From UHGV virus genome UHGV-1636268: a stretch of DNA of 22,365 nt; one strand, 5' to 3'. The position numbers and the translations under genes are program-made. Source of the DNA: a virus. The notes beneath the pieces were generated by a model. That model saw only the letters and a list, made by a program, of their open reading frames with translations, made no database searches and had not been told where the DNA came from. Of this stretch, positions 273-22,033 are shown piece after piece; position 1 is the first letter of the stretch; each line of letters opens with the position of its first letter.

Positions 273-1058
273 TTAGTTCTTTGCGTCTAAGAAGGTAAGT
301 TCTGGTGAAGAGAAGATTAACTCAATATCCTCATCAGTTCTTGCATAGATATAAGCATCTGCATCACTGCCAAATGTTACTGCAATTCTGTGATTGCTCT
401 TCGACAGGTGGGTAACTAGAGCGTTACTTAGAGACATCTTTTCAACCGGAGGGTTACTTTGATGTATCTTACCTTTTCTTCGTCTGAAGAGGGTAACTGC
501 GTTATCTGTGAACACAACTACACCTGCAAAGTATTCTGGTTCACAGTAGTTTTTCCAACCTGAGTGTAACTCATTATACATTTTTGCTTCATAGACATAC
601 AGATAAACATCTACACTCTTCATCACCTGATTAATGATAACTGTGACAGCTTGAGGGTCAAGTCCACCGATACCTGCACCAATCATAGGTAGACCAACTT
701 TCTTCAACTGGTTAACTTCACAGTATCTGTTAAGCTGTTTCAAGGATGACTCTAAAGCACTGTATCGGGCATCTTTACCAGTATGAAGTTGGGTGTAAAG
801 GTTAGCTATACGGCCTTGTTTTAAACGTGCTACAGAGAAATTACCTAGTAAATTTTCACAGGGTTTGTGACGAATGCCACCTGCAAACAGGTAAACTTCT
901 GTGTCAGTATCATACACTTTTGGATAACGCTTAGAAATAGTTGCTGCAATACCTGCACCCATGAAATTCATACAGTTGCAACCATGACCAATGATATCAA
1001 ATTTGCCTTTATCAAATGCGTCAAAGATATCACCTTTGATGATTTTTACAATACCCAT
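273..1058 (-). CDS. Macro-domain protein (ADP-ribose binding/processing family) with ~100-aa C-terminal extension of unknown function
   Basis: N-terminal GDIFDAFDKGKFDIIGHGCNCMNFMGAGIAATI fits the macro-domain pattern GDIT...DxIVNxxN...GxGVxxAI. Start trimmed to ATG at 1058..1056 (GGGAGAG SD 8 nt upstream), which overlaps the upstream stop as TAATG; the track's 1073 start is a TTG extension. Confidence 0.65.
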   Translation of the reverse strand: MGIVKIIKGDIFDAFDKGKFDIIGHGCNCMNFMGAGIAATISKRYPKVYDTDTEVYLFAGGIRHKPCENLLGNFSVARLKQGRIANLYTQLHTGKDARYSALESSLKQLNRYCEVNQLKKVGLPMIGAGIGGLDPQAVTVIINQVMKSVDVYLYVYEAKMYNELHSGWKNYCEPEYFAGVVVFTDNAVTLFRRRKGKIHQSNPPVEKMSLSNALVTHLSKSNHRIAVTFGSDADAYIYARTDEDIELIFSSPELTFLDAKN

Positions 1059-8190: not shown

Positions 8191-8507
8191 GACTCACCTC
8201 TCATATTCTTGTAAAGGATAAAGCTTCTGTCATGAACGATACTTGTAGATACTGCAAAGTTACTTTCAAGCATCTGTTTGTTTGGATTGTAGAAGCTTTC
8301 TTTAAACTCGTCAAGTGCAAATTGGTGATGTTGTGGAAGACCTTTTACACAAACCTTTATTGTGATTGCTGCTGCAACCTTGCCAGCCAGTTCTTCTTTA
8401 GCTGCTACTAAAATTTTGTTAAGAAACTTATGACCATCTTCATGCTTCTTGATGTTCTCCCAACGTTCTTCTAAGACAATGTTGATGTTCATTTCTTTGA
8501 TTTTCAT
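8172..8507 (-). CDS. Hypothetical protein (111 aa)
   Basis: ATG start with GGAG SD 7 nt upstream, directly after the terminator at 8525-8545; no recognisable motif. Confidence 0.5.
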   Translation of the reverse strand: MKIKEMNINIVLEERWENIKKHEDGHKFLNKILVAAKEELAGKVAAAITIKVCVKGLPQHHQFALDEFKESFYNPNKQMLESNFAVSTSIVHDRSFILYKNMRGESCKHIG

Positions 8508-8524
8508 AGTCTTCTCCAGAAATT

Positions 8525-8545
8525 AAAAAGGCTCCCGTAGGAGCC
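8525..8545 (-). terminator. Rho-independent terminator (GGCTCC-cgta-GGAGCC hairpin + T5)
   Basis: Perfect 6-bp stem 8530-8535/8540-8545; A-run 8525-8529 gives TTTTT on the minus strand; 16 nt after the NAMPT-like gene stop. Confidence 0.6.
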
Positions 8546-8560
8546 TCTTATCATATACTT

Positions 8561-10342
8561 TTAAAGCTGCTTGTCAATATTATTTCGAATATCACCAAGA
8601 GTTGTGTAACCGAACTGCTCAGAGTCGCTAAAGACTAGACGCAAAGCACAAGCTGGGTGTTCAAGTGCATCTGCAAAGCTCTGGAACCCATAGCCATCTA
8701 CAGCTTTCAGATTTTCACAATCCCACATAGGTGCTACACCACCAAAAGCAGACTTCTTAACACCACTATCTGTTTTAGGGTCTTTTGCAAGCATAATCTC
8801 TTTACCACCAATGCTTGCAAGAGTTGCTTTGACAGCAAATGCAAAGGTGTCACGAGTCATGTACTGGTAAGTGTAAGAACCTACACCAAACACTACGTTA
8901 GAGCTTGCAAAACCAATTTCATACAAACGCTTCAGTATTTCGTTTGCACGTTCCAACGTGATAGAGTCGCCATAAATAAGCCCGATATGCTCATCCAGTA
9001 CTTTAAAACCTTTAGAGTTGATAGTTCCTCCAAAGATGTTATACAGTGTCTTAATAGCTCCATCAATCTCCGCTACAGGACGTGTTACAACGTTTGCAGA
9101 GCCGTTGATGTAAGCATCTTTCAGCAACACTGTATCGGCTACTTCAAAGTCTTCTCTGTCAACAACCATTTCGTAGCCTTCTGACAGTAGCCATCCAGCA
9201 ATACCATAGTTAATGTTTTCAAGCTTCATGTTCAGGACAGAGTTCAGCATTGTATCACTTGCCTCTAGCTTGCTTAGGTGCTCGTAATAAGCCTTTTTAG
9301 CACACTCTAAGTGGATTGCTTTGTAACCTGTGACAATATGTACAGGGTCTCCAGAGTCAGGGCGAATTACCAGTTTACCATCACGTTCCATAATTTCTTT
9401 ACGGAGTGCTGGTAAGATTTCTGACACAGTTCTCCAGAAGTTATAAGTATCTGAAACAACACTTGCAATACCAGTTGGGTAAGTTTCTGTTAAGAAACGA
9501 CGGAAGGTTTGTAACTCACCTTTAAAGCGTCTTTCTTCTTCAATCAACTCATTACCACCTTCCCAAGCAATGTTTGCACACATTACAGAGTGCTCAGTGG
9601 CTGGTACAGAGCTACCAATATCAGAGATTGGGTAAGACTGTCCATAGATTCGTTTAGCCGTATACACAGCAGGGAAGCTATCAGTTCCTTTAAAGCTGGT
9701 TAAGTGGCCTACAGCGTTAAATGCGTCATCAGTAAAGCCGGACATACCACGCATAGCAAAGTCATGGCACTGATAAGGTAAATGTAAGTCGTTGTCGCAA
9801 GTAAGGTCAGCCCACTTCTTACAGATGCGTTTATAATGCAATGCAATAGTTGCAATGGTACAAGCCTTCCAAATCTCAGCAGAGAAAGCATCTTCCAGAT
9901 ACCCCGCTACCCAATGGAAACCTGAAACAGTGTTCTGGAAGACAATCATTGGGACACGCATAGGGACAACTGTACCTTCTTCTACCGCGTATACTTCAAC
10001 TGGTAGATAACCTAAGTCGTGAAGTGCTTCCCAATGCTCTCGACCGATAGCATCTTTACCCAGAACACCATTCATGACTTCTAAGATTTCGTCAATTGCT
10101 TCTTTTTTATCACGTTCAAAGAAAGTGGCGTTCCAGTGGTCTATCAAGTAATCTTTAACAAAACGTTGAATACCAAAAGCCACTACACCGTCAATTGCTA
10201 AAGGGCTGTTAAACCATTTGTCACTACGTGGTGTCAGGTTGAACATCAAGTATTCTGTTGCACTAGGGTACTGGTAAACATGGCCAGACTTGTAAGCATC
10301 CGCGTTTAAACCTGCTGGTACTGCATAAAGTGATTTAGTCAT
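8561..10342 (-). CDS. nadV: Nicotinamide phosphoribosyltransferase (NAMPT/NadV) family protein; candidate nicotinamide ADP-ribose transferase (Namat-type) given its Prs-like partner
   Basis: N-terminus NADAYKSGHVYQYP parallels the NAMPT N-terminal signature (human ATDSYKVTHYKQYP, recalled). ATG start verified. At 593 aa it is ~100 aa longer than the ~490-aa canonical enzyme. Lies directly downstream of the Prs-like gene. Confidence 0.8.
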   Translation of the reverse strand: MTKSLYAVPAGLNADAYKSGHVYQYPSATEYLMFNLTPRSDKWFNSPLAIDGVVAFGIQRFVKDYLIDHWNATFFERDKKEAIDEILEVMNGVLGKDAIGREHWEALHDLGYLPVEVYAVEEGTVVPMRVPMIVFQNTVSGFHWVAGYLEDAFSAEIWKACTIATIALHYKRICKKWADLTCDNDLHLPYQCHDFAMRGMSGFTDDAFNAVGHLTSFKGTDSFPAVYTAKRIYGQSYPISDIGSSVPATEHSVMCANIAWEGGNELIEEERRFKGELQTFRRFLTETYPTGIASVVSDTYNFWRTVSEILPALRKEIMERDGKLVIRPDSGDPVHIVTGYKAIHLECAKKAYYEHLSKLEASDTMLNSVLNMKLENINYGIAGWLLSEGYEMVVDREDFEVADTVLLKDAYINGSANVVTRPVAEIDGAIKTLYNIFGGTINSKGFKVLDEHIGLIYGDSITLERANEILKRLYEIGFASSNVVFGVGSYTYQYMTRDTFAFAVKATLASIGGKEIMLAKDPKTDSGVKKSAFGGVAPMWDCENLKAVDGYGFQSFADALEHPACALRLVFSDSEQFGYTTLGDIRNNIDKQL

Positions 10343-10389
10343 CTTTTAATCTCTCTCTCAAAATGGGTCTTTCAAGCCCCTATAAAGTT

Positions 10390-11271
10390 TCAATCAAGGT
10401 TTGCTACAGTAACTTGACTGTAATGTGTTAAGCCACGGTCTTTAGCTTCGCCTAAAGAGTTTGTAGTGTAAATATGGTCGATACCATTGTCAAGAAGGTT
10501 TTCAACATCTTTAGAGAAGATACCATGTGTTACATAAAGCTCTACACGTTTTGCACCTGCTTCACGTAGGTGTTTAGCTGCCTCTACGAAGGTTCGACCA
10601 CCATCACAGATATCATCAAGAATCATGACGGTTTTATCGGTCAAATCAACATCGTCAAGGATTCGCATACCAGTGATTTCTCCAGTCTTAAGATTTCGCA
10701 CCTTAGACATTGTGATATATGGTTTATCCACCTCTTTAGCAGTCTCTGCAATCTTCTTAGAAGCACCTGCATCTGGGGCTACTAAGTAATCAATCAGAGG
10801 GTCATTTGCGTAATGGACTGCAATCTCCTTTTGAGGAATACTCTGGAAGCAATTGAAAAGGTTATCTGGAACGTAACTATGAGGGTCAACTGCACAGACT
10901 GCATCAAAACCCATTGCATTAACCTGTTGTGCAAACACTTTCAAAGCTGCTGCATCACCTTTAAACATGTGACGGTCGTAACGTGCATTTGGCAAATAGT
11001 AAAAGATAGCAGTCTTCATAGCAAACTTATGAGGTACTAAATCATCAATTGCCTCTTTAGCAAGTGCCACAGCAAATAATGTGTCTTTGTCATAACCCTT
11101 TATAATCATAATCACGTTGTTGATGGATGATGCAGCATAAGCAGTAAAATCAACAAACTCTGGTGAAAAATGTCCACCAATCTCACCAGAAGGAAATTGG
11201 ACGATGTTAAACTCTTCTTCGTGAGTCCCTTTAGTTGGTGAATGAACTGTAACACGGATAGATGTTTTCAT
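10390..11271 (-). CDS. prs: Ribose-phosphate pyrophosphokinase (Prs) family protein; candidate ADP-ribose pyrophosphokinase (Adps-type)
   Basis: Prs-family motifs: YLPNARYDR (cf. E. coli YFGYARQDR), VCAVDPHS (cf. VLTVDLHA), and the PRPP-binding loop VMILDDICDGGRTFVEAAKHLREAGAKRV (cf. [28 protein letters not shown]). Start trimmed to ATG at 11271..11269 (GAGAGA SD); the track's 11286 start is TTG. Confidence 0.8.
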   Translation of the reverse strand: MKTSIRVTVHSPTKGTHEEEFNIVQFPSGEIGGHFSPEFVDFTAYAASSINNVIMIIKGYDKDTLFAVALAKEAIDDLVPHKFAMKTAIFYYLPNARYDRHMFKGDAAALKVFAQQVNAMGFDAVCAVDPHSYVPDNLFNCFQSIPQKEIAVHYANDPLIDYLVAPDAGASKKIAETAKEVDKPYITMSKVRNLKTGEITGMRILDDVDLTDKTVMILDDICDGGRTFVEAAKHLREAGAKRVELYVTHGIFSKDVENLLDNGIDHIYTTNSLGEAKDRGLTHYSQVTVANLD

Positions 11272-11282
11272 AGTTTTGTCTC

Positions 11283-11561
11283 TCAATCAAAGGTTACGTT
11301 TGTTACTGCCATTGCAGATTTGCATTTTACAGGGTCTACAACGTGGTAAAGTACACTACAGTTACCTGTGCTGTCTGGTACAGGTTTTACCCATTGATGC
11401 TTTATAGTTGGCTCTCCTAAGTCTTTGTAAGAACCATCTGTAAAGTTGTTTACCATCTCAAGTGCAATTGGTTCTGGAACATGACCACGTATCATGTACA
11501 TTTCACAACCATTACCACCTTCACTGACTAATGGTAAAATTTCCCACTTCTCTTTAGCCAT
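11283..11561 (-). CDS. Hypothetical protein (92 aa)
   Basis: ATG start; sits directly upstream of the Prs-like gene; no recognisable motif. Confidence 0.45.
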   Translation of the reverse strand: MAKEKWEILPLVSEGGNGCEMYMIRGHVPEPIALEMVNNFTDGSYKDLGEPTIKHQWVKPVPDSTGNCSVLYHVVDPVKCKSAMAVTNVTFD

Positions 11562-12069
11562 TGTAAGTTGCCCTATAAACTGTCTCGAATTTCAACAGGA
11601 GAGATATTGCCAAATCTGTATAGTTATTGTCAAGCACATCTGGCATATTATTTTTGATATATTTCTCTTGCTCTTCGTAGGTCATCTTAGGGATGCTTAG
11701 AAGACTATCACCTTGATTCTGATTATCAAGTTTAGTCTGGATAAACCAGTTTGCACAGTGATGCTCACCACCCTTTGTAACAGGTTTGTGGTGGCCTAAT
11801 GTGAAGGATTGACTACCTGTGTATCTGCAAAGTTTATTGAGCACTGTAATGGTGTTCTTCACAACAAAACATTCATATAGGTTATCTATAGTGTAGTGTG
11901 GGTAATAACGGAATAGTGCTCTTTCACGAGTACTTTCACGATTCCAGAGAATCATGTGATTGGAGTTTGAGGAGTCGTATTGGTGGTAGTCAATGAACTC
12001 TTGACGTTCCTCAAAGCTGAGTCTTAACACTGACATTGCAGCAGAACGTTTCAGATTTGACAGATACAT
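11554..12069 (-). CDS. Hypothetical protein (171 aa) with His/Cys-rich segment GHHKPVTKGGEHHC
   Basis: ATG start with GGAG SD 6 nt upstream, directly after the terminator at 12084-12107; possible metal-binding motif; family not recognised. Confidence 0.5.
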   Translation of the reverse strand: MYLSNLKRSAAMSVLRLSFEERQEFIDYHQYDSSNSNHMILWNRESTRERALFRYYPHYTIDNLYECFVVKNTITVLNKLCRYTGSQSFTLGHHKPVTKGGEHHCANWFIQTKLDNQNQGDSLLSIPKMTYEEQEKYIKNNMPDVLDNNYTDLAISLLLKFETVYRATYNG

Positions 12070-12083
12070 GTTATCTCCAAAAT

Positions 12084-12107
12084 AAAAAGGGAACCTTTAC
12101 AGTTCCC
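12084..12107 (-). terminator. Rho-independent terminator (GGGAAC-7 nt loop-GTTCCC + T5)
   Basis: Perfect 6-bp stem 12089-12094/12102-12107; A-run 12084-12088 gives TTTTT on the minus strand; 14 nt after the stop at 12121. Confidence 0.55.
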
Positions 12108-12120
12108 TTATAGTATCTGC

Positions 12121-14344: not shown

Positions 14345-16489
14345 TTACATAGAAACTCTGTTACGAATCTCAGCGATTTTTGCATCATTCATTCGTGATT
14401 CACCTTTAATCTTAGTCCATCCAAGATAACCACACACCCTGTTAATCACAGAGATATCATGTGAATGGCAAACCTCACATTCTTCAACATCAGCCTTTGG
14501 TCTGTTACCACAATGCTCACAGATTGCTAAGTCAAAGTTAAGTCCCTGATAAAAACCCTTCAACATCCCTCTGGTAATACAACTTTTAAGTGCTGTTAAG
14601 TTTTCTGGGTTAGCTACCCTTACATACTGGATTCTACCACCTCTACAGATATGGAAGAATGGCTCTTCTAAGTCCTGCTTCTCAAATGGTGAGATGTCTG
14701 CTGCAACATTCATATGGAAACTGTTTGTAAAGTATTCCTTGTCAGAGACACCTTTAATAACGCCAAACATATCTCTGAACTGTTTTAGCTGAGTTCCACA
14801 AAGTGATTCTGCTGGAGTGCCATAGACTGCATATAAGAAGCCATCTTCATTTTTAAACTCTTCAGTTTTCATGTTGATGTATTCCAGAACATCGTATGCA
14901 AAACTACAGCTTCCGACTTCATGAAGTCGTTTACCTTCAGCAAGAACAGACAGCTCATCAAGAGCAGTAACCCCAAAAGAAGCTGTGAAGGATTTCACAA
15001 TATCCCAACCAACCCTGTCAGTAGGTTTCTTAGTCCCTTTGTACAGACCACCTTGTGTGAATGCAAGAGGGTTAGAACTTGCTGGCATATTAGCAATCAT
15101 TTCGTAACGTTTCTTGTGGAAGCTGCGAATCATCTCTAGGTACTTATTAAGCTCTTTCCAGAAATCTAAACCATTCTCTTTAGAATACTGGTAAATCATT
15201 GGTAAGTTCAAAGATACAGCACCAATGTTAGCACGACCAACGTAGAACTCTTCCCCATCCTCATTAAGATATGGAGATAAGAAGGCTCTACAACCCATCG
15301 GCGAAATTACCTTGCCAGAACGCTCAAAAGCTTCTGCTACAGCACCATGACCAGATACACTTAAGAAATCTGGATACATCGCTTTAGAGCAACACTCTAT
15401 AGCTTTACTGTACAGGTGGCCTTGACAGATATTCTCATTATGTCTCTTCTGGTCATAAATATAAACAAGTTTAGGGAATACAACAGGTTTCTTGCTCTTA
15501 CCTTGTCCATTCATACGAACATCTAGGAGAGTACTTGCAATCATATATTGCAGTCGGTTATCTTCATTGGACATATCTGAGTCAAGTAACCCGAATGTCA
15601 AAGTTGTGAATGCAAAATCCCCACGGCTACAAGGTACAGTGTTTAGTTTCATTTCAAGTGACTGGAAACCTTGAGTCAGTTCAATCTGTAGCTGCTCCAT
15701 GACATAATTGTGGTAATGTTCTTTAGGAATACCATAAGATGCTGCTTTCTCAGCATGGTAGCGTAGAGACTTCTTAGCATACGGCACAAGTACCTTATCA
15801 ATCTCTGCTAAAGTAAAGCCACCAAATTGCTGTGCAGTTGCTGAAAGAACTACGTCACCAATAACCTGCAACGCTGACAGCACAGACTTCGGTTCACAAT
15901 ATTCGATGCCAGACATTTCAAAGCCACCTTTCAGGACTTTACCAATGTCAAACAGGCAACAGTTAATACCACCAAAAATCAGGTCTCTTAAATCATGGAT
16001 ATAGATAAAGCCTTTCTCAATGGCTTCAAGTTCCTCTGGTGTTAGATGATACTGTTTAAAGATTTCTTTAGTCAGGTAACCACGGATAATTGAACCTTTC
16101 GTAGAAATTAAACTGCTGTCAAAGTTAGCATTTTCACGGTCACCTAAGAAGAGTGTATCTTTAGTCTTCTGGTAGAGTTCATCCCAATTTTGAGCAACCT
16201 CTTTACGGTAATTTCTATATGTTGAGTAAGACTCATAAATCTCGTGATTGACTTCTGCCAAAGCACCCTCAACAATACTGTGAATATCATTTACCGAAAT
16301 TAGCAAATTATTCTGCTTAGTGGACTTTACCAGAATCCTCATAAATGCTGACTCAAGAGCTTGAGTAACATCTGGTGGAAGCTCTTTATAACCAACTCTG
16401 TTAGCTGACTTTGTGACTGCTGCTAAAACTTTTTTGATATCAGGTTCTTCAAGTGAGCCATTCTTTTTAATAATCTGTACTTTGTTCAT
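14345..16489 (-). CDS. nrdD: Anaerobic ribonucleoside-triphosphate reductase (class III, glycyl radical enzyme)
   Basis: C-terminal glycyl-radical motif RVCGYLG preceded by zinc ribbon CEHCGN...CEVC; N-terminal ATP-cone-like segment; 714 aa; ATG start with AAGGGG SD. Confidence 0.9.
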   Translation of the reverse strand: MNKVQIIKKNGSLEEPDIKKVLAAVTKSANRVGYKELPPDVTQALESAFMRILVKSTKQNNLLISVNDIHSIVEGALAEVNHEIYESYSTYRNYRKEVAQNWDELYQKTKDTLFLGDRENANFDSSLISTKGSIIRGYLTKEIFKQYHLTPEELEAIEKGFIYIHDLRDLIFGGINCCLFDIGKVLKGGFEMSGIEYCEPKSVLSALQVIGDVVLSATAQQFGGFTLAEIDKVLVPYAKKSLRYHAEKAASYGIPKEHYHNYVMEQLQIELTQGFQSLEMKLNTVPCSRGDFAFTTLTFGLLDSDMSNEDNRLQYMIASTLLDVRMNGQGKSKKPVVFPKLVYIYDQKRHNENICQGHLYSKAIECCSKAMYPDFLSVSGHGAVAEAFERSGKVISPMGCRAFLSPYLNEDGEEFYVGRANIGAVSLNLPMIYQYSKENGLDFWKELNKYLEMIRSFHKKRYEMIANMPASSNPLAFTQGGLYKGTKKPTDRVGWDIVKSFTASFGVTALDELSVLAEGKRLHEVGSCSFAYDVLEYINMKTEEFKNEDGFLYAVYGTPAESLCGTQLKQFRDMFGVIKGVSDKEYFTNSFHMNVAADISPFEKQDLEEPFFHICRGGRIQYVRVANPENLTALKSCITRGMLKGFYQGLNFDLAICEHCGNRPKADVEECEVCHSHDISVINRVCGYLGWTKIKGESRMNDAKIAEIRNRVSM

Positions 16490-18361: not shown

Positions 18362-20596
18362 CTAAACACCACAACCCTCGCAATAAGCATCTTGCAGTGC
18401 AGATTTACCTACACCAATGCGACTGTTAAGGTAGTACATGGTTTTCATACCTACCGAGTTGGCATAAATCATGTACTTCAAAGCTTGAGCCAATGATACC
18501 TTCTTAGACTTTGCATAGTCAACATAGAAGTCTGAAGAGATAGCTTGACCAGTGAACTTTTGAACAATTGCATAACAGTCAATCATATCAAAGGTGTCGA
18601 TATCCCAAGCAATTTCATAGACATACTTCAATTCTTCATAATCTGGAACAATAAACAGTACGTTACCAGTTGCAGACTTTTTAGTTAAAATAAAGTCACG
18701 AATTGGGTACAAACCATTTGTCGTATTGGTTGCCAGTGAAGAACTCTCATTAGGCATGTAAGCTTCTAATACAGAGTTTCGGATTCCACCATTTTCTTTG
18801 ATACGTTGTGCTAAGTCATCCCAATCATATCGTAGTTTTGCATCATGCTTTTCATCAATCTTCTTGTTAGCTGTCTTTGGAGGAACCCAGCCTTCAGGAT
18901 ACTTAGTGAACTTCATGTACTCTGGCACGCCACGTTCTTTAGCAAGTCTCAGAGAGGCTTCATGCAGATAGTAAGAGTGCATCTCTGCCAGTTCATGAAG
19001 TTTCGTTTTACCTGCTCGTGAAGAGTAGTTCACGTAGTTCTTCGCAAGGTAATGAGCCACATTTGTAAGGCCAATCCCAACAGAACGACGCTTCTGAACG
19101 TGGTTACGCATCGACGGATACGGATAATCCATAAGGTCAATAACGGAGTCAACCATTGCAAGAGCATAATAAGCAACGTCAGCGTATTCATCTTCTGAAA
19201 TTCTCCCTGCAACCAAACTAGCTAGGAAGCAAAGAGCCACCTCACCATCCTCTTTCACAGCATCATCTCTGTAAAGGTCTGTCTCTTTCTCAAAACCATA
19301 CACTGGCAATACAATTTCCATACAAAGATTTGACATCTTCAAAGGCTCTTTAAATGGTGTATGTGTGTTTGCATTATTCGTGAAGAATGGGTACACACGA
19401 CCTGTTGCATAACGCTGCTGGATAAACAGTTTAGCAATTTCACGAGCCTTTACTCGTCTGTGCTTAACACCTGAATGCACTGCGTGACCAACTGCCATAG
19501 CAAACTCATCAGCAGATGCTGTGTAGAACATGTCATAGAGTTTTGGTGCATCTTTGTAAGAGAATAGCAACCAGTCTGTATCATATTGAACACACTGCCA
19601 GAAATAATCATTTGTACCAAATGAGTAGTCCATCTCATTAATACGTTTAGAAGGAACCGTTGTAGGGTGCTTCAAACGCAGTAAATCTTCAATCTGCGGG
19701 TCTAGAGCAGTGTAGAAGTTATTAGCTGAACCACCACGACTCTTCTGTTTGTTTGCCTCTACAGATGAGCGTACAAGCTTGTAATAAGGTAGTTTACCCA
19801 TGTGCTCAATAGTATTTTGACGGATACCATCACCAATAGTACGAGTCTCCATCAGCATCCCAATGCCAGCTTGCTTTGTAGTCATATCATAAGCAACCTT
19901 TGCAGCAATACCGAGAGACTCAGCAGTATCATTTGCCTTAATCAAACAGCATGACGCATAACCTGATTTAGTTGCTCTTAACCCGTTTAAATAGGGCGTA
20001 GGAGCGTTAATCTTCAGGTCAGATAGGTAAGTGTACAGCTTGATAACATCTTGCAGTCTACGGTGCTTTGGTTGCTTCTCAAAGGCTTTCATAGCCATAC
20101 CCATGAACATAAATTGTGGTGACTCAAAAAGTCTTCCCGTTTTAATATCACGGATACCATACTTGTCTCTGAACTGTTTCAAGACTGCATAACCGTAAGA
20201 GATATCTTTTGAGTGCACAATGTAACCTTGCAGGTATTCAAGCTCTTCCTGTGAGTAGTCCATCTTCTCCCAAAGTCCTGCTCTCTCCATATTTTTAACG
20301 AAGGTAACCAGCGTAGGAACCTTAGTAAATCCTCCAAATGCTTCTTTGTAGATAATACCCAAAAGCAGTCGTCCAGCCATATCTGAGTACTCTTGAGTTT
20401 GTTTATCAACACAAACATCAATCATGGCTTGGTGCATCTCTTTTGTAGTGCAACCCTCATAGACACGTTTCATAGCTTCCATAGTGACTTCTGACCAGAT
20501 AATTCCACGTTTATCTGCCCATGATGCCCACTTATTCAGTCTTTCTGGGTCAAAGCTTACTACTGTACCATTTGATTTTTTAATTGTCTTAATCAT
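18362..20596 (-). CDS. nrdA: Ribonucleoside-diphosphate reductase alpha subunit (class Ia)
   Basis: 744 aa; active-site region SNLCMEIVLP (cf. conserved NLCTEI); C-terminal redox cysteines CEGCGV; ATG start with AGGA SD. Confidence 0.9.
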   Translation of the reverse strand: MIKTIKKSNGTVVSFDPERLNKWASWADKRGIIWSEVTMEAMKRVYEGCTTKEMHQAMIDVCVDKQTQEYSDMAGRLLLGIIYKEAFGGFTKVPTLVTFVKNMERAGLWEKMDYSQEELEYLQGYIVHSKDISYGYAVLKQFRDKYGIRDIKTGRLFESPQFMFMGMAMKAFEKQPKHRRLQDVIKLYTYLSDLKINAPTPYLNGLRATKSGYASCCLIKANDTAESLGIAAKVAYDMTTKQAGIGMLMETRTIGDGIRQNTIEHMGKLPYYKLVRSSVEANKQKSRGGSANNFYTALDPQIEDLLRLKHPTTVPSKRINEMDYSFGTNDYFWQCVQYDTDWLLFSYKDAPKLYDMFYTASADEFAMAVGHAVHSGVKHRRVKAREIAKLFIQQRYATGRVYPFFTNNANTHTPFKEPLKMSNLCMEIVLPVYGFEKETDLYRDDAVKEDGEVALCFLASLVAGRISEDEYADVAYYALAMVDSVIDLMDYPYPSMRNHVQKRRSVGIGLTNVAHYLAKNYVNYSSRAGKTKLHELAEMHSYYLHEASLRLAKERGVPEYMKFTKYPEGWVPPKTANKKIDEKHDAKLRYDWDDLAQRIKENGGIRNSVLEAYMPNESSSLATNTTNGLYPIRDFILTKKSATGNVLFIVPDYEELKYVYEIAWDIDTFDMIDCYAIVQKFTGQAISSDFYVDYAKSKKVSLAQALKYMIYANSVGMKTMYYLNSRIGVGKSALQDAYCEGCGV

Positions 20597-20981: not shown

Positions 20982-21297
20982 GGTATTTCTCCAAGTTTCT
21001 TTTTAGATATAACCAACCGTAGTCAGTCCTTTCTACACCCATAAAGAGCGGAGCCATCACAACTTTACCGAAAGTATTCCTGTGTTGGCAGATTTCAAAA
21101 GAATATTCTTTCTCAATATCAATCCCATATTTGTACAGGACTGCTTTTAAAACTTGTTCATTGTCCAGAAGTGTATCTGGAGTCTCACCATACTTTTCTA
21201 GTAACGGGTCATTCATAAACACCGTCATAGAAATATTGTAGTTTGAGAAGTGGCTCTTCTGAGCCACACCCTCTTTATTAATGTTCTGTGAATCCAT
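20974..21297 (-). CDS. Hypothetical protein (~107 aa)
   Basis: Start trimmed to ATG at 21297..21295 (the track's start is TTG at 21306); no recognisable motif. Confidence 0.45.
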   Translation of the reverse strand: MDSQNINKEGVAQKSHFSNYNISMTVFMNDPLLEKYGETPDTLLDNEQVLKAVLYKYGIDIEKEYSFEICQHRNTFGKVVMAPLFMGVERTDYGWLYLKRNLEKYRV

Positions 21298-22033
21298 TAT
21301 AACCAACCCCTTTTAACCAGCACTTCAGGTTATTAGCATCATAATTCAGTTTCGGGTATGAGGTTACATGAAACTGCTCACCATCATAATAGACAATATC
21401 TGCAATCCATAGTCCATTCTCTTTACAGAAGTCTTTATCTGCTTTAGAGGTAATTGGATTAACTTCTACAAAACCATCTACACCCAAATCCTTTAAGCTA
21501 CCTACAATACCTTTGCAGATAACGCATGTCTCAGATACTACCACAAAAAGTTCTTGGCTTTCAAGTTCTACAATGTATTCACCAAGCTGTACTTTAGGGA
21601 GATTCGATTGCTTCATAATCTTCCCATCTGCTGCACGAACAATGGCATACCACTCTTTACCATCAACTACTGACATTCTGATAATACACTCTTGACCAGT
21701 ACGCTTCTCAATATCTGCAAGACGTTTTAAAGCTTCTTCATAATCGTCTGTGTACTTCAGGTCATTATTACGGCAAACAGCTTTCATAGCACCGTTATGG
21801 TCATGTTGTGACAGGTAAATCAAACCGTCAAGAACATATTGCAAATCTGCCTGAGCATCCAGTGTCTCAATGGGGTCTTTCTCTTCAATTGCTTTTACAA
21901 GCTCTTTTGCTTCTTCAAGCATACACAGAGATTGAGATTTTAAAGATTCCCAATACTCATCACTGTAAGGTTGCTTTTGAGTGTTTCCACAACGAAGGTT
22001 CCAGTTTTTTACTGATTCTCTTGAGTTAAACAT
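21278..22033 (-). CDS. Hypothetical protein (251 aa); N-terminal region weakly MazG-like (all-alpha NTP pyrophosphohydrolase), C-terminal domain unknown
   Basis: ATG start; the segment LEEAKELVKAIEEKDPIETLDAQADLQYVLDGL resembles the MazG/HisE-type EExxE...DxxD metal-binding helices. Product call is tentative. Confidence 0.45.
   Translation of the reverse strand: MFNSRESVKNWNLRCGNTQKQPYSDEYWESLKSQSLCMLEEAKELVKAIEEKDPIETLDAQADLQYVLDGLIYLSQHDHNGAMKAVCRNNDLKYTDDYEEALKRLADIEKRTGQECIIRMSVVDGKEWYAIVRAADGKIMKQSNLPKVQLGEYIVELESQELFVVVSETCVICKGIVGSLKDLGVDGFVEVNPITSKADKDFCKENGLWIADIVYYDGEQFHVTSYPKLNYDANNLKCWLKGVGYNGFTEH

Follow-up and report, generated by a model that had tools for sequence, protein, structure and literature searches.

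The stretch of DNA considered here (the window; 22,365 nt of the virus genome UHGV-1636268) carries all of its long open reading frames (ORFs) on the minus strand, and two of them, a Prs-like gene followed by a NAMPT-like gene, are the subject of this report. We assign the pair to a Felixounavirus operon for NAD+ reconstitution pathway 1 (NARP1), with a probability of roughly 0.93, the Prs-like adps gene encoding the first enzyme of the pathway, an ADP-ribose pyrophosphokinase, and the NAMPT-like namat gene the second, a nicotinamide ADP-ribose transferase. The Prs-like ORF extends over 10390-11286 when read from a TTG codon, with a likely start at the ATG at 11271, which places adps at 10390-11271 (minus strand) and gives a product of 293 amino acids (aa), the length of the orthologue in Escherichia phage Bas63. 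The namat gene occupies 8561-10342 (minus strand, 593 aa), and its ORF contains NADAYKSGHVYQYP. A preliminary description of this DNA had named three Prs motifs, DDICDGGRT, YLPNARYDR and VDPHS, all of which we find in the Prs-like ORF, and had placed that gene directly upstream of the NAMPT-like gene on the same strand with 47 nt between them, which the coordinates confirm. This 47-nt spacer (10343-10389, minus strand) holds the namat ribosome-binding region as well as a weak hairpin.

The family assignments of both proteins are unambiguous and lie far beyond chance. In Pfam, namat matches NAPRTase (E = 1e-34) and NAMPT_N, and adps matches Pribosyltran/Pribosyl_synth (E about 1e-10 to 5e-11); the pair's matches among the PHROGs are PHROG 448 (E = 6e-201) and PHROG 619 (E = 9e-98). 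Among the NCBIfam models, Namat scores 468 bits against NF006629, above its cut-off, and Adps scores 126 bits against TIGR01251.

The window is a Felixounavirus segment. Aligned across 99% of its length, it shares 96% identity with Felixounavirus LF82P1, and it is collinear with positions 40789-64332 of Escherichia phage JohannRWettstein (Bas63, MZ501086) at 91-97% nucleotide identity. The gene order starts with a MazG-like gene, nrdA, nrdB, glutaredoxin, nrdD, small ORFs, nrdG and more small ORFs, and continues with the Prs-like/NAMPT-like pair, two small ORFs, rIIA, rIIB, polynucleotide kinase, spanins and a Macro-domain 'phosphatase'. Megablast of a 3.2-kb region returned 260 phage records at 90-96% identity, nearly all of them FelixO1-like, with Escherichia, Salmonella, Shigella and Citrobacter as the hosts named.

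Within this collinear segment, adps and namat stand where Bas63 has bas63_0079 and bas63_0080, with the nrdG block on one side and rIIA on the other, and encode proteins as long as their Bas63 counterparts (293 and 593 aa). It was through these two Bas63 genes (79-80), which form an operon, that NARP1 was discovered (Osterman et al., bioRxiv 10.1101/2024.02.11.579819). The two loci share genus, genomic position and gene order, with a spacer of 45 nt in Bas63 and 47 nt in the window. Both proteins align without gaps, Namat at 97% identity to Bas63_0080 (577/593) and Adps at 79% identity to Bas63_0079 (232/293); identity rises to 96% in the C-terminal domain of Adps, and the Bas63 Namat also holds both of the insertions described below. 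The Bas63 operon differs in the N-terminal 180 Adps residues, which are 69% identical to the recombinant allele of the window (synonymous divergence, dS, of 1.87), and in bas63_0081, a hypothetical gene of 345 nt (18408-18752 of the Bas63 segment) that immediately follows Bas63 namat and is absent from the window, where the alignment skips from 18410 to 18756 of that segment at window positions ~8505-8510. Furthermore, the Adps allele of the window is 99.7% identical to a protein of Salmonella phage Si3, which is entered in the supplementary Table S1 of Adps homologues of Osterman et al. with the Namat association 'Yes'. In the same paper, Namats are annotated by the partner homologue (Prs/Adps or Nmnat) found in the same genome, and those of Bas63, Si3 and FelixO1 are labelled 'Adps-associated'. 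The NARP1 system has been known since 2024 and, since the window's Adps allele is listed through Si3 in the founding paper, the pair is a catalogued member of a published system.

In the published pathway, a host defence that depletes NAD+ (SIR2-HerA/Nezha, type I Thoeris, DSR1/DSR2 or similar) splits NAD+ into ADP-ribose and nicotinamide. Adps, with its Prs fold, then uses ATP to pyrophosphorylate ADP-ribose, attaching the beta-gamma pyrophosphate to the terminal ribose, so that ADP-ribose pyrophosphate (ADPR-PP) is formed and AMP released. Namat, with its NAMPT fold, swaps the pyrophosphate of ADPR-PP for nicotinamide to give NAD+, using neither a nicotinamide mononucleotide (NMN) intermediate nor an NMN adenylyltransferase (NMNAT). 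For Bas63, deletion of genes 79-80 brings ~20-fold sensitivity to SIR2-HerA and abolishes NAD+ recovery, and ADPR-PP is seen only when wild-type Bas63 and the defence system are present together (Osterman et al.). As reported in the same work, the Adps of SpβL1 converts ADP-ribose and ATP to ADPR-PP, a homologue of gene 80 converts ADPR-PP and nicotinamide to NAD+ with a preference for ADPR-PP over phosphoribosyl pyrophosphate (PRPP), and other NARP1 operons act against type I Thoeris, DSR1 and DSR2. Both enzyme reactions have been shown for the homologous proteins of SpβL1, ICP1 and DyoEdafos. By analogy, the alleles of the window, notably the divergent Adps N-terminal domain, would be expected to behave like these homologues and like the Bas63 orthologues.

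A classical route would draw on the same folds: a true PRPP synthetase and a true NAMPT (NadV) would turn ribose-5-phosphate and nicotinamide into NMN, and NadR or PncC of the host would finish NAD+. The database names and domain hits do read Prs and NAMPT, the NF006629 score of Namat is above that model's cut-off, and the SpβL1 Namat makes NMN from PRPP in vitro if ADPR-PP is absent. Against this route, Bas63 beats SIR2-HerA even in a host without pncC and nadR, neither of which its counter-defence effect needs, and the SpβL1 Adps yielded no product in a Prs-type control reaction (both Osterman et al.); moreover, Namat gives only NAD+ when both donors are offered. In the window itself, Adps misses all Prs equivalog cut-offs and resembles ICP1 Adps more than E. 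coli Prs, and the clamp residues of Namat are present, as set out below. We consider the classical route very improbable. The NARP1 reading also has a value for annotation: public records call the two proteins ribose-phosphate pyrophosphokinase and nicotinamide phosphoribosyltransferase, and both name the wrong reaction.

With respect to Adps, the comparison with ICP1 Adps gives 40% identity (E = 1e-34), an identity that covers the C-terminal two thirds only, with the N-terminal domain aligning poorly, and the comparison with E. coli Prs gives 30% identity (E = 8e-16). The protein falls below every NCBIfam Prs equivalog cut-off, its best equivalog or subfamily scores being 106 bits (cut-off 296) and 93 bits (cut-off 297), and only the general TIGR01251 model is passed. 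An Adps is recognised by a Namat homologue within 10 genes, which holds for 97% of the clade, and here namat begins 47 nt downstream of adps on the same strand. As far as sequence comparison can place it, Adps appears to be a member of the phage Adps clade and not a canonical Prs. Residue roles have been defined in structures of ICP1 Adps (PMC13586617). Because no solved Adps structure was found in the copy of the PDB that was searched (best match Sulfolobus Prs 4twb, E = 3e-19), we mapped the ICP1 residues by alignment to the ICP1 gene taken from GenBank. The acceptor residues are kept, with ICP1 R87, H121, D161, D212, D213 and D216 corresponding to R97, H131, D167, D219, D220 and D223 in the window, and so is the catalytic beta-hairpin lysine (ICP1 K185, SpβL1 K162), which is K190 in the window. 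Also kept are ICP1 C215 (C222) and F221 (F228). The likeness to ICP1 Adps (PMC13586617) thus comprises the two-domain Prs-like form, the hairpin lysine, the acceptor Arg, His and Asp residues, the DDICD motif and the adjacent Namat.

In a PDB sequence comparison, Namat matches the SpβL1 Namat best (entries 9w5w and 9w5x, E = 2e-126), with Haemophilus NadV at 1e-103 and human and other mammalian NAMPT at ~1e-40. An AlphaFold2 model built on 26 homologues (pLDDT 92.1, pTM 0.91) gives the same ranking, with 9w5x and 9w5w as the top fold matches (TM-score 0.95, target-normalised; 38% identity) and NadV/NAMPT behind. The catalytic histidine (H251) and the core arginine (R327, SpβL1 R306) are conserved. 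Specificity for ADPR-PP is conferred by an adenine 'selectivity clamp', which consists of a clamp loop with R, K or Y as its third residue and a stacking residue supplied, and of a clamp helix with two aromatics (PMC12774641). The clamp loop of the window, S40-D41-K42-W43, follows the pattern described for Bas63 in PMC12774641, with stacking by the fourth residue, and the clamp-helix aromatics F392 and Y396 of SpβL1 correspond to Y490 and Y494. Compared with the SpβL1 NARP1 enzyme (9W5W/9W5X, PMC12774641), we therefore see the same fold at a TM-score of 0.95, the same catalytic His and Arg and the same placement of clamp-helix aromatics; the differences are an identity of ~38%, a clamp loop with R40 in SpβL1 and with K42 and W43 in the window, and the lack in SpβL1 of the window's ~77-85-aa mini-domain and 15-aa insertion. 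The clamp-helix motif GSxTYQY alone is not fully discriminating, being shared with bacterial homologues of 496 aa. These homologues are chromosomal (Klebsiella, Cronobacter, Kosakonia, Phytobacter and Erwinia) and 45-48% identical to the phage Namat; judged from sequence, they may be bacterial NARP1-like enzymes (PMC12774641) or NadV.

The NAMPT-like protein had been described as ~100 aa longer than the canonical enzyme, and at 593 aa it indeed exceeds the 488-496 aa of the ICP1 and SpβL1 Namats and the bacterial homologues. Most of the extra length lies in an inserted alpha/beta mini-domain at residues ~342-427 (9062-9319, minus strand). A second, short insertion at residues ~258-272 (9527-9571, minus strand) comes after the catalytic-His segment PATEHSVMCAN; its 15 residues form a gap in the 9w5x alignment, and its length varies among long-form homologues. 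The large insert is predicted, with high confidence, to be a compact alpha/beta unit within the full model, and modelled alone it reaches a pLDDT of 91 and a pTM of 0.80. Its sequence is present in 254 phage records, all FelixO1-like (Ounavirinae) among the matches listed, and metagenomic proteins include long Namat forms down to ~45% identity. Four other Namat lineages carry unrelated insertions at the same site, which suggests that the site is a permissive surface loop. A search of the PDB and BFVD gave no structural relative of the large insert. Whether considered as regulation, Adps docking or evasion of a host sensor, an added function of the insert that short Namats would lack is an idea we hold only tentatively, jointly with that of a dispersed phosphatase partner discussed below, and we think it unlikely. 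For SpβL1, Namat is reported to form no stable complex with Adps (PMC12774641).

A further alternative follows the architecture of vibriophage KVP40, NARP2, in which NAMPT works with an NMNAT encoded elsewhere and the Prs-like protein would only supply PRPP. Of the genome's roughly 86 kb, the window represents 22 kb, so that an NMNAT could lie outside it. The preliminary description had recognised no NMNAT in the window, and this held up in Pfam and PHROG scans: among the coding-strand ORFs of at least 150 aa in the window there is no match to a nucleotidyltransferase family (the clearly assigned NrdA, NrdB and NrdD were scanned by PHROGs only, the others also by Pfam). Neither is an NMNAT product annotated in Bas63 between 37101 and 87100, and the label 'Adps-associated' given to the Bas63, Si3 and FelixO1 Namats in the founding paper likewise speaks against NARP2, which we regard as negligible in probability. 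Both KVP40 NARP2 and Prs/NadV salvage resemble the present pair in using a NAMPT-fold enzyme and nicotinamide, whereas the window is without an NMNAT and has an Adps-type partner and an adenine clamp in its NAMPT-like protein. The preference expressed earlier for an Adps/Namat architecture over NAMPT plus NMNAT is thus supported by Bas63 orthology, residue signatures, the fold and the lack of any NMNAT found. NARP3 (PnuC and NadR) has a different architecture and is not present. No Pfam match to the RyR-domain accessory (RyDEP), as in mycobacteriophage DyoEdafos, was obtained for the flanking ORFs.

Several points weigh against the assignment of the pair to NARP1. In Adps, the adenine contact F92 of ICP1 is replaced by M102, the donor-site (PP-loop) residues A218-A219-S220 by G225-R226-T227 and F223 by E230, and ICP1 F18 falls in a poorly aligned region with no reliable counterpart in the window. 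Bas63 Adps itself was never purified, and the biochemistry rests on homologues that are 30-40% identical; the Adps allele of the window is known from sequence alone, with N-terminal 180 residues 69% identical to those of Bas63. Namat homologues retain a side activity from PRPP to NMN in vitro (PMC12774641), and we also count the large Namat insert, with its lack of PDB and BFVD relatives, on this side. The ICP1-type residues at F92, A218-S220 and F223 are evidently not universal in the family, since Bas63 Adps has the same replacements and works in vivo, and the replaced contacts appear to vary by lineage and need not disqualify the protein. Likewise, both Namat insertions are compatible with function in vivo, because the Bas63 Namat has both. 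NARP1 explains the survival of ~4% of sequenced phages under SIR2-HerA, type I Thoeris and DSR, and the window adds one more instance of this operon, from the same genus that led to the pathway's discovery. Whatever the Namat insert, the two N-terminal alleles of Adps and the Macro gene far downstream may contribute would be an increment to this known system and not a new kind of system.

With respect to transcription, the strong terminator reported after the second gene is real: an intrinsic terminator on the minus strand (8526-8549, read from 8549 to 8526) closes the operon with AAGAGGCTCC-TACG-GGAGCCTTTT and then a T-rich tail (the T-run); of the 10 stem pairs, 5 are G-C, and the loop measures 4 nt. 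Upstream, a terminator-like hairpin (12087-12109, minus strand; a 9-bp stem then TTTATTTT) marks the probable 5' boundary of the adps/namat transcription unit. Between this hairpin and adps lie two small, conserved ORFs of the bas63_0077/0078 region, one of 171 aa (11554-12069, minus strand) and one of 92 aa (11283-11561, minus strand), which match phrog_3500 and phrog_4726 and have bas63_0077 and bas63_0078 as counterparts. Scans against Pfam, PHROG and PADLOC gave no informative homology for these two proteins; the 171-aa protein contains an HNH-like motif, GHHKPVTKGGEHHCANW, and has a weak HNH PHROG match (E = 3e-4). Judging by position only, both ORFs are probably co-transcribed with adps and namat, and the transcription unit may hold four genes. 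The weak hairpin noted previously in the spacer at 10365-10380 is present, but it carries no signal and folds like shuffled sequence (minimum free energy -7.9 kcal/mol, z = -0.6, with 48/200 shuffles folding at least as well); given this z-score and an Rfam scan that found no family anywhere in the window, we reject it as a regulatory element. Hits to a sigma-70 promoter in the window are at chance level (15 found, 12.6 ± 4.0 expected), and none was assigned; one promoter-like hit, at 12138-12110, was discarded because it would fire straight into the terminator-like hairpin.

The Adps gene is a mosaic in comparison with Bas63, with a sharp boundary within the coding sequence. Over the first ~520 nt of adps the nucleotide identity is 50-84%, whereas the flanks, including the rest of adps, are at 92-98%, so that codons 1 to ~175, which encode the N-terminal domain (10750-11270, minus strand), constitute a divergent allele. 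At the protein level, 124/180 N-terminal residues are identical as against 108/113 C-terminal ones. The mosaic segment has a dS of 1.87 and a ratio of nonsynonymous to synonymous divergence (dN/dS) of 0.12, compared with a dS of 0.39 for the rest of adps and 0.19 for namat. Across adps and namat, dN/dS is 0.06-0.12, and both genes are therefore under purifying selection. Diversifying selection as the source of the divergent N-terminus was rejected on the basis of the dN/dS of 0.12 with a saturated dS of 1.87; the pattern speaks for exchange by recombination of an N-terminal-domain allele that is old and has been under purifying selection. Felixounavirus records carry the allele of the window more often than the alternative, and the FelixO1 Adps is a chimera of both N-terminal alleles. 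In phage ULIM9, a gene for a 163-aa HNH endonuclease lies exactly in the adps-namat spacer (ULIM9 segment 2258-2749), and the records of phages Meda and skuden have an HNH (homing) endonuclease annotated within the matched region. Because of these genes and the HNH-like motif in the 171-aa ORF, homing-endonuclease traffic with co-conversion is a plausible driver of the adps mosaic.

At some distance from the operon, 7.5 kb downstream of namat, the window encodes a 261-aa Macro-domain protein (273-1058, minus strand), the counterpart of bas63_0095, 'putative phosphatase'. It matches Pfam Macro in its N-terminal part (E = 5.5e-7) and phrog_335 'phosphatase' (E = 5e-115), and it bears an unexplained C-terminal extension of ~100 aa. 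Recent work reported that aRES defences cut NAD+ to ADPR-1''-phosphate, which NARP1 cannot use, and that a Macro-domain phosphatase, Adpp, by which ADP-ribose is restored, is encoded in 15% of NARP1 operons (Osterman et al., bioRxiv 10.64898/2026.01.28.702374). The arrangement called NARP1-AP has Adpp in or next to the operon, and here the 47-nt spacer leaves no such gene and the neighbouring ORFs are without a Macro domain. As an extension of the NARP1 reading and not an alternative to it, the pathway could be dispersed, with the Macro protein turning ADPR-1''-phosphate into ADP-ribose for Adps and Namat. Along its whole length the protein aligns, with 29-30% identity (pairwise E = 7e-16), to the characterised Adpp of Vibrio phage Gary and to Achelous gp176, which are nearly identical to each other, and it is 37% identical to the MACRO protein next to NARP1 in Pseudomonas phage PN09. 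It also matches the same PADLOC macro model (DarG) as Adpp does, at E = 5e-15 and 3e-12. Its gene has the same orientation as the operon and shares with it one block of early or middle genes, and the list in the aRES paper, in which no Felixounavirus entry was found, covers immediate operon neighbours only.

The dispersed arrangement is nevertheless doubtful. The Macro gene is ~14 genes away, outside the operon, and its product is equally similar (38%) to Tk.4 of T4, while T4-like phages are not among the Adps matches listed. The best solved relatives are the TARG1/OARD1 deacylases, with Poa1p matching only the N-terminus, and the C-terminal extension is left unaccounted for. Sequence variation among Felixounaviruses is sharp, the Macro protein of Si3 being 40% identical. 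An equally good fit is a DarG-like role, in which the protein would strip ADP-ribose off DNA or protein. The PADLOC DarG match was discarded as a means of separating the Macro protein from Adpp, as both Adpp and T4 Tk.4 match too. On sequence similarity, then, an Adpp-like role is possible, and the protein could equally be a DarG-like de-ADP-ribosylase (anti-DarT). In comparison with the NARP1-AP of the Vibrio phages Gary and Achelous (Adps-Adpp-Namat), the window has Adps, Namat and a Macro protein of the same family, but its Macro gene stands outside the operon, 7.5 kb away, and has the C-terminal extension. If the dispersed arrangement were true, FelixO1-like phages would have an unrecognised NARP1-AP capability against aRES-type defences, beyond the published two-gene unit.

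Elsewhere, the window's nrdD forms one continuous ORF (14345-16489, 714 aa). In Bas63 the gene is split by an insert (10727-11469 of the Bas63 segment) with the homing endonuclease bas63_0068, its coding sequence being joined from two pieces, and the insertion point corresponds to window position 15292. The MazG-like nucleotide pyrophosphohydrolase (21278-22033, minus strand; Pfam PRA-PH, E = 5e-6; phrog_2144, E = 4e-102) is a further nucleotide-pool gene of the same early region, upstream of the nrd block. Felixounavirus adps and namat are also found at 94-97% identity in two records named after other hosts, MG065668.1 ('Campylobacter phage A126', 43 kb) and GU169904.1 ('Staphylococcus phage SA1', 147 kb), which are probably contaminated or chimeric assemblies and not real host jumps.

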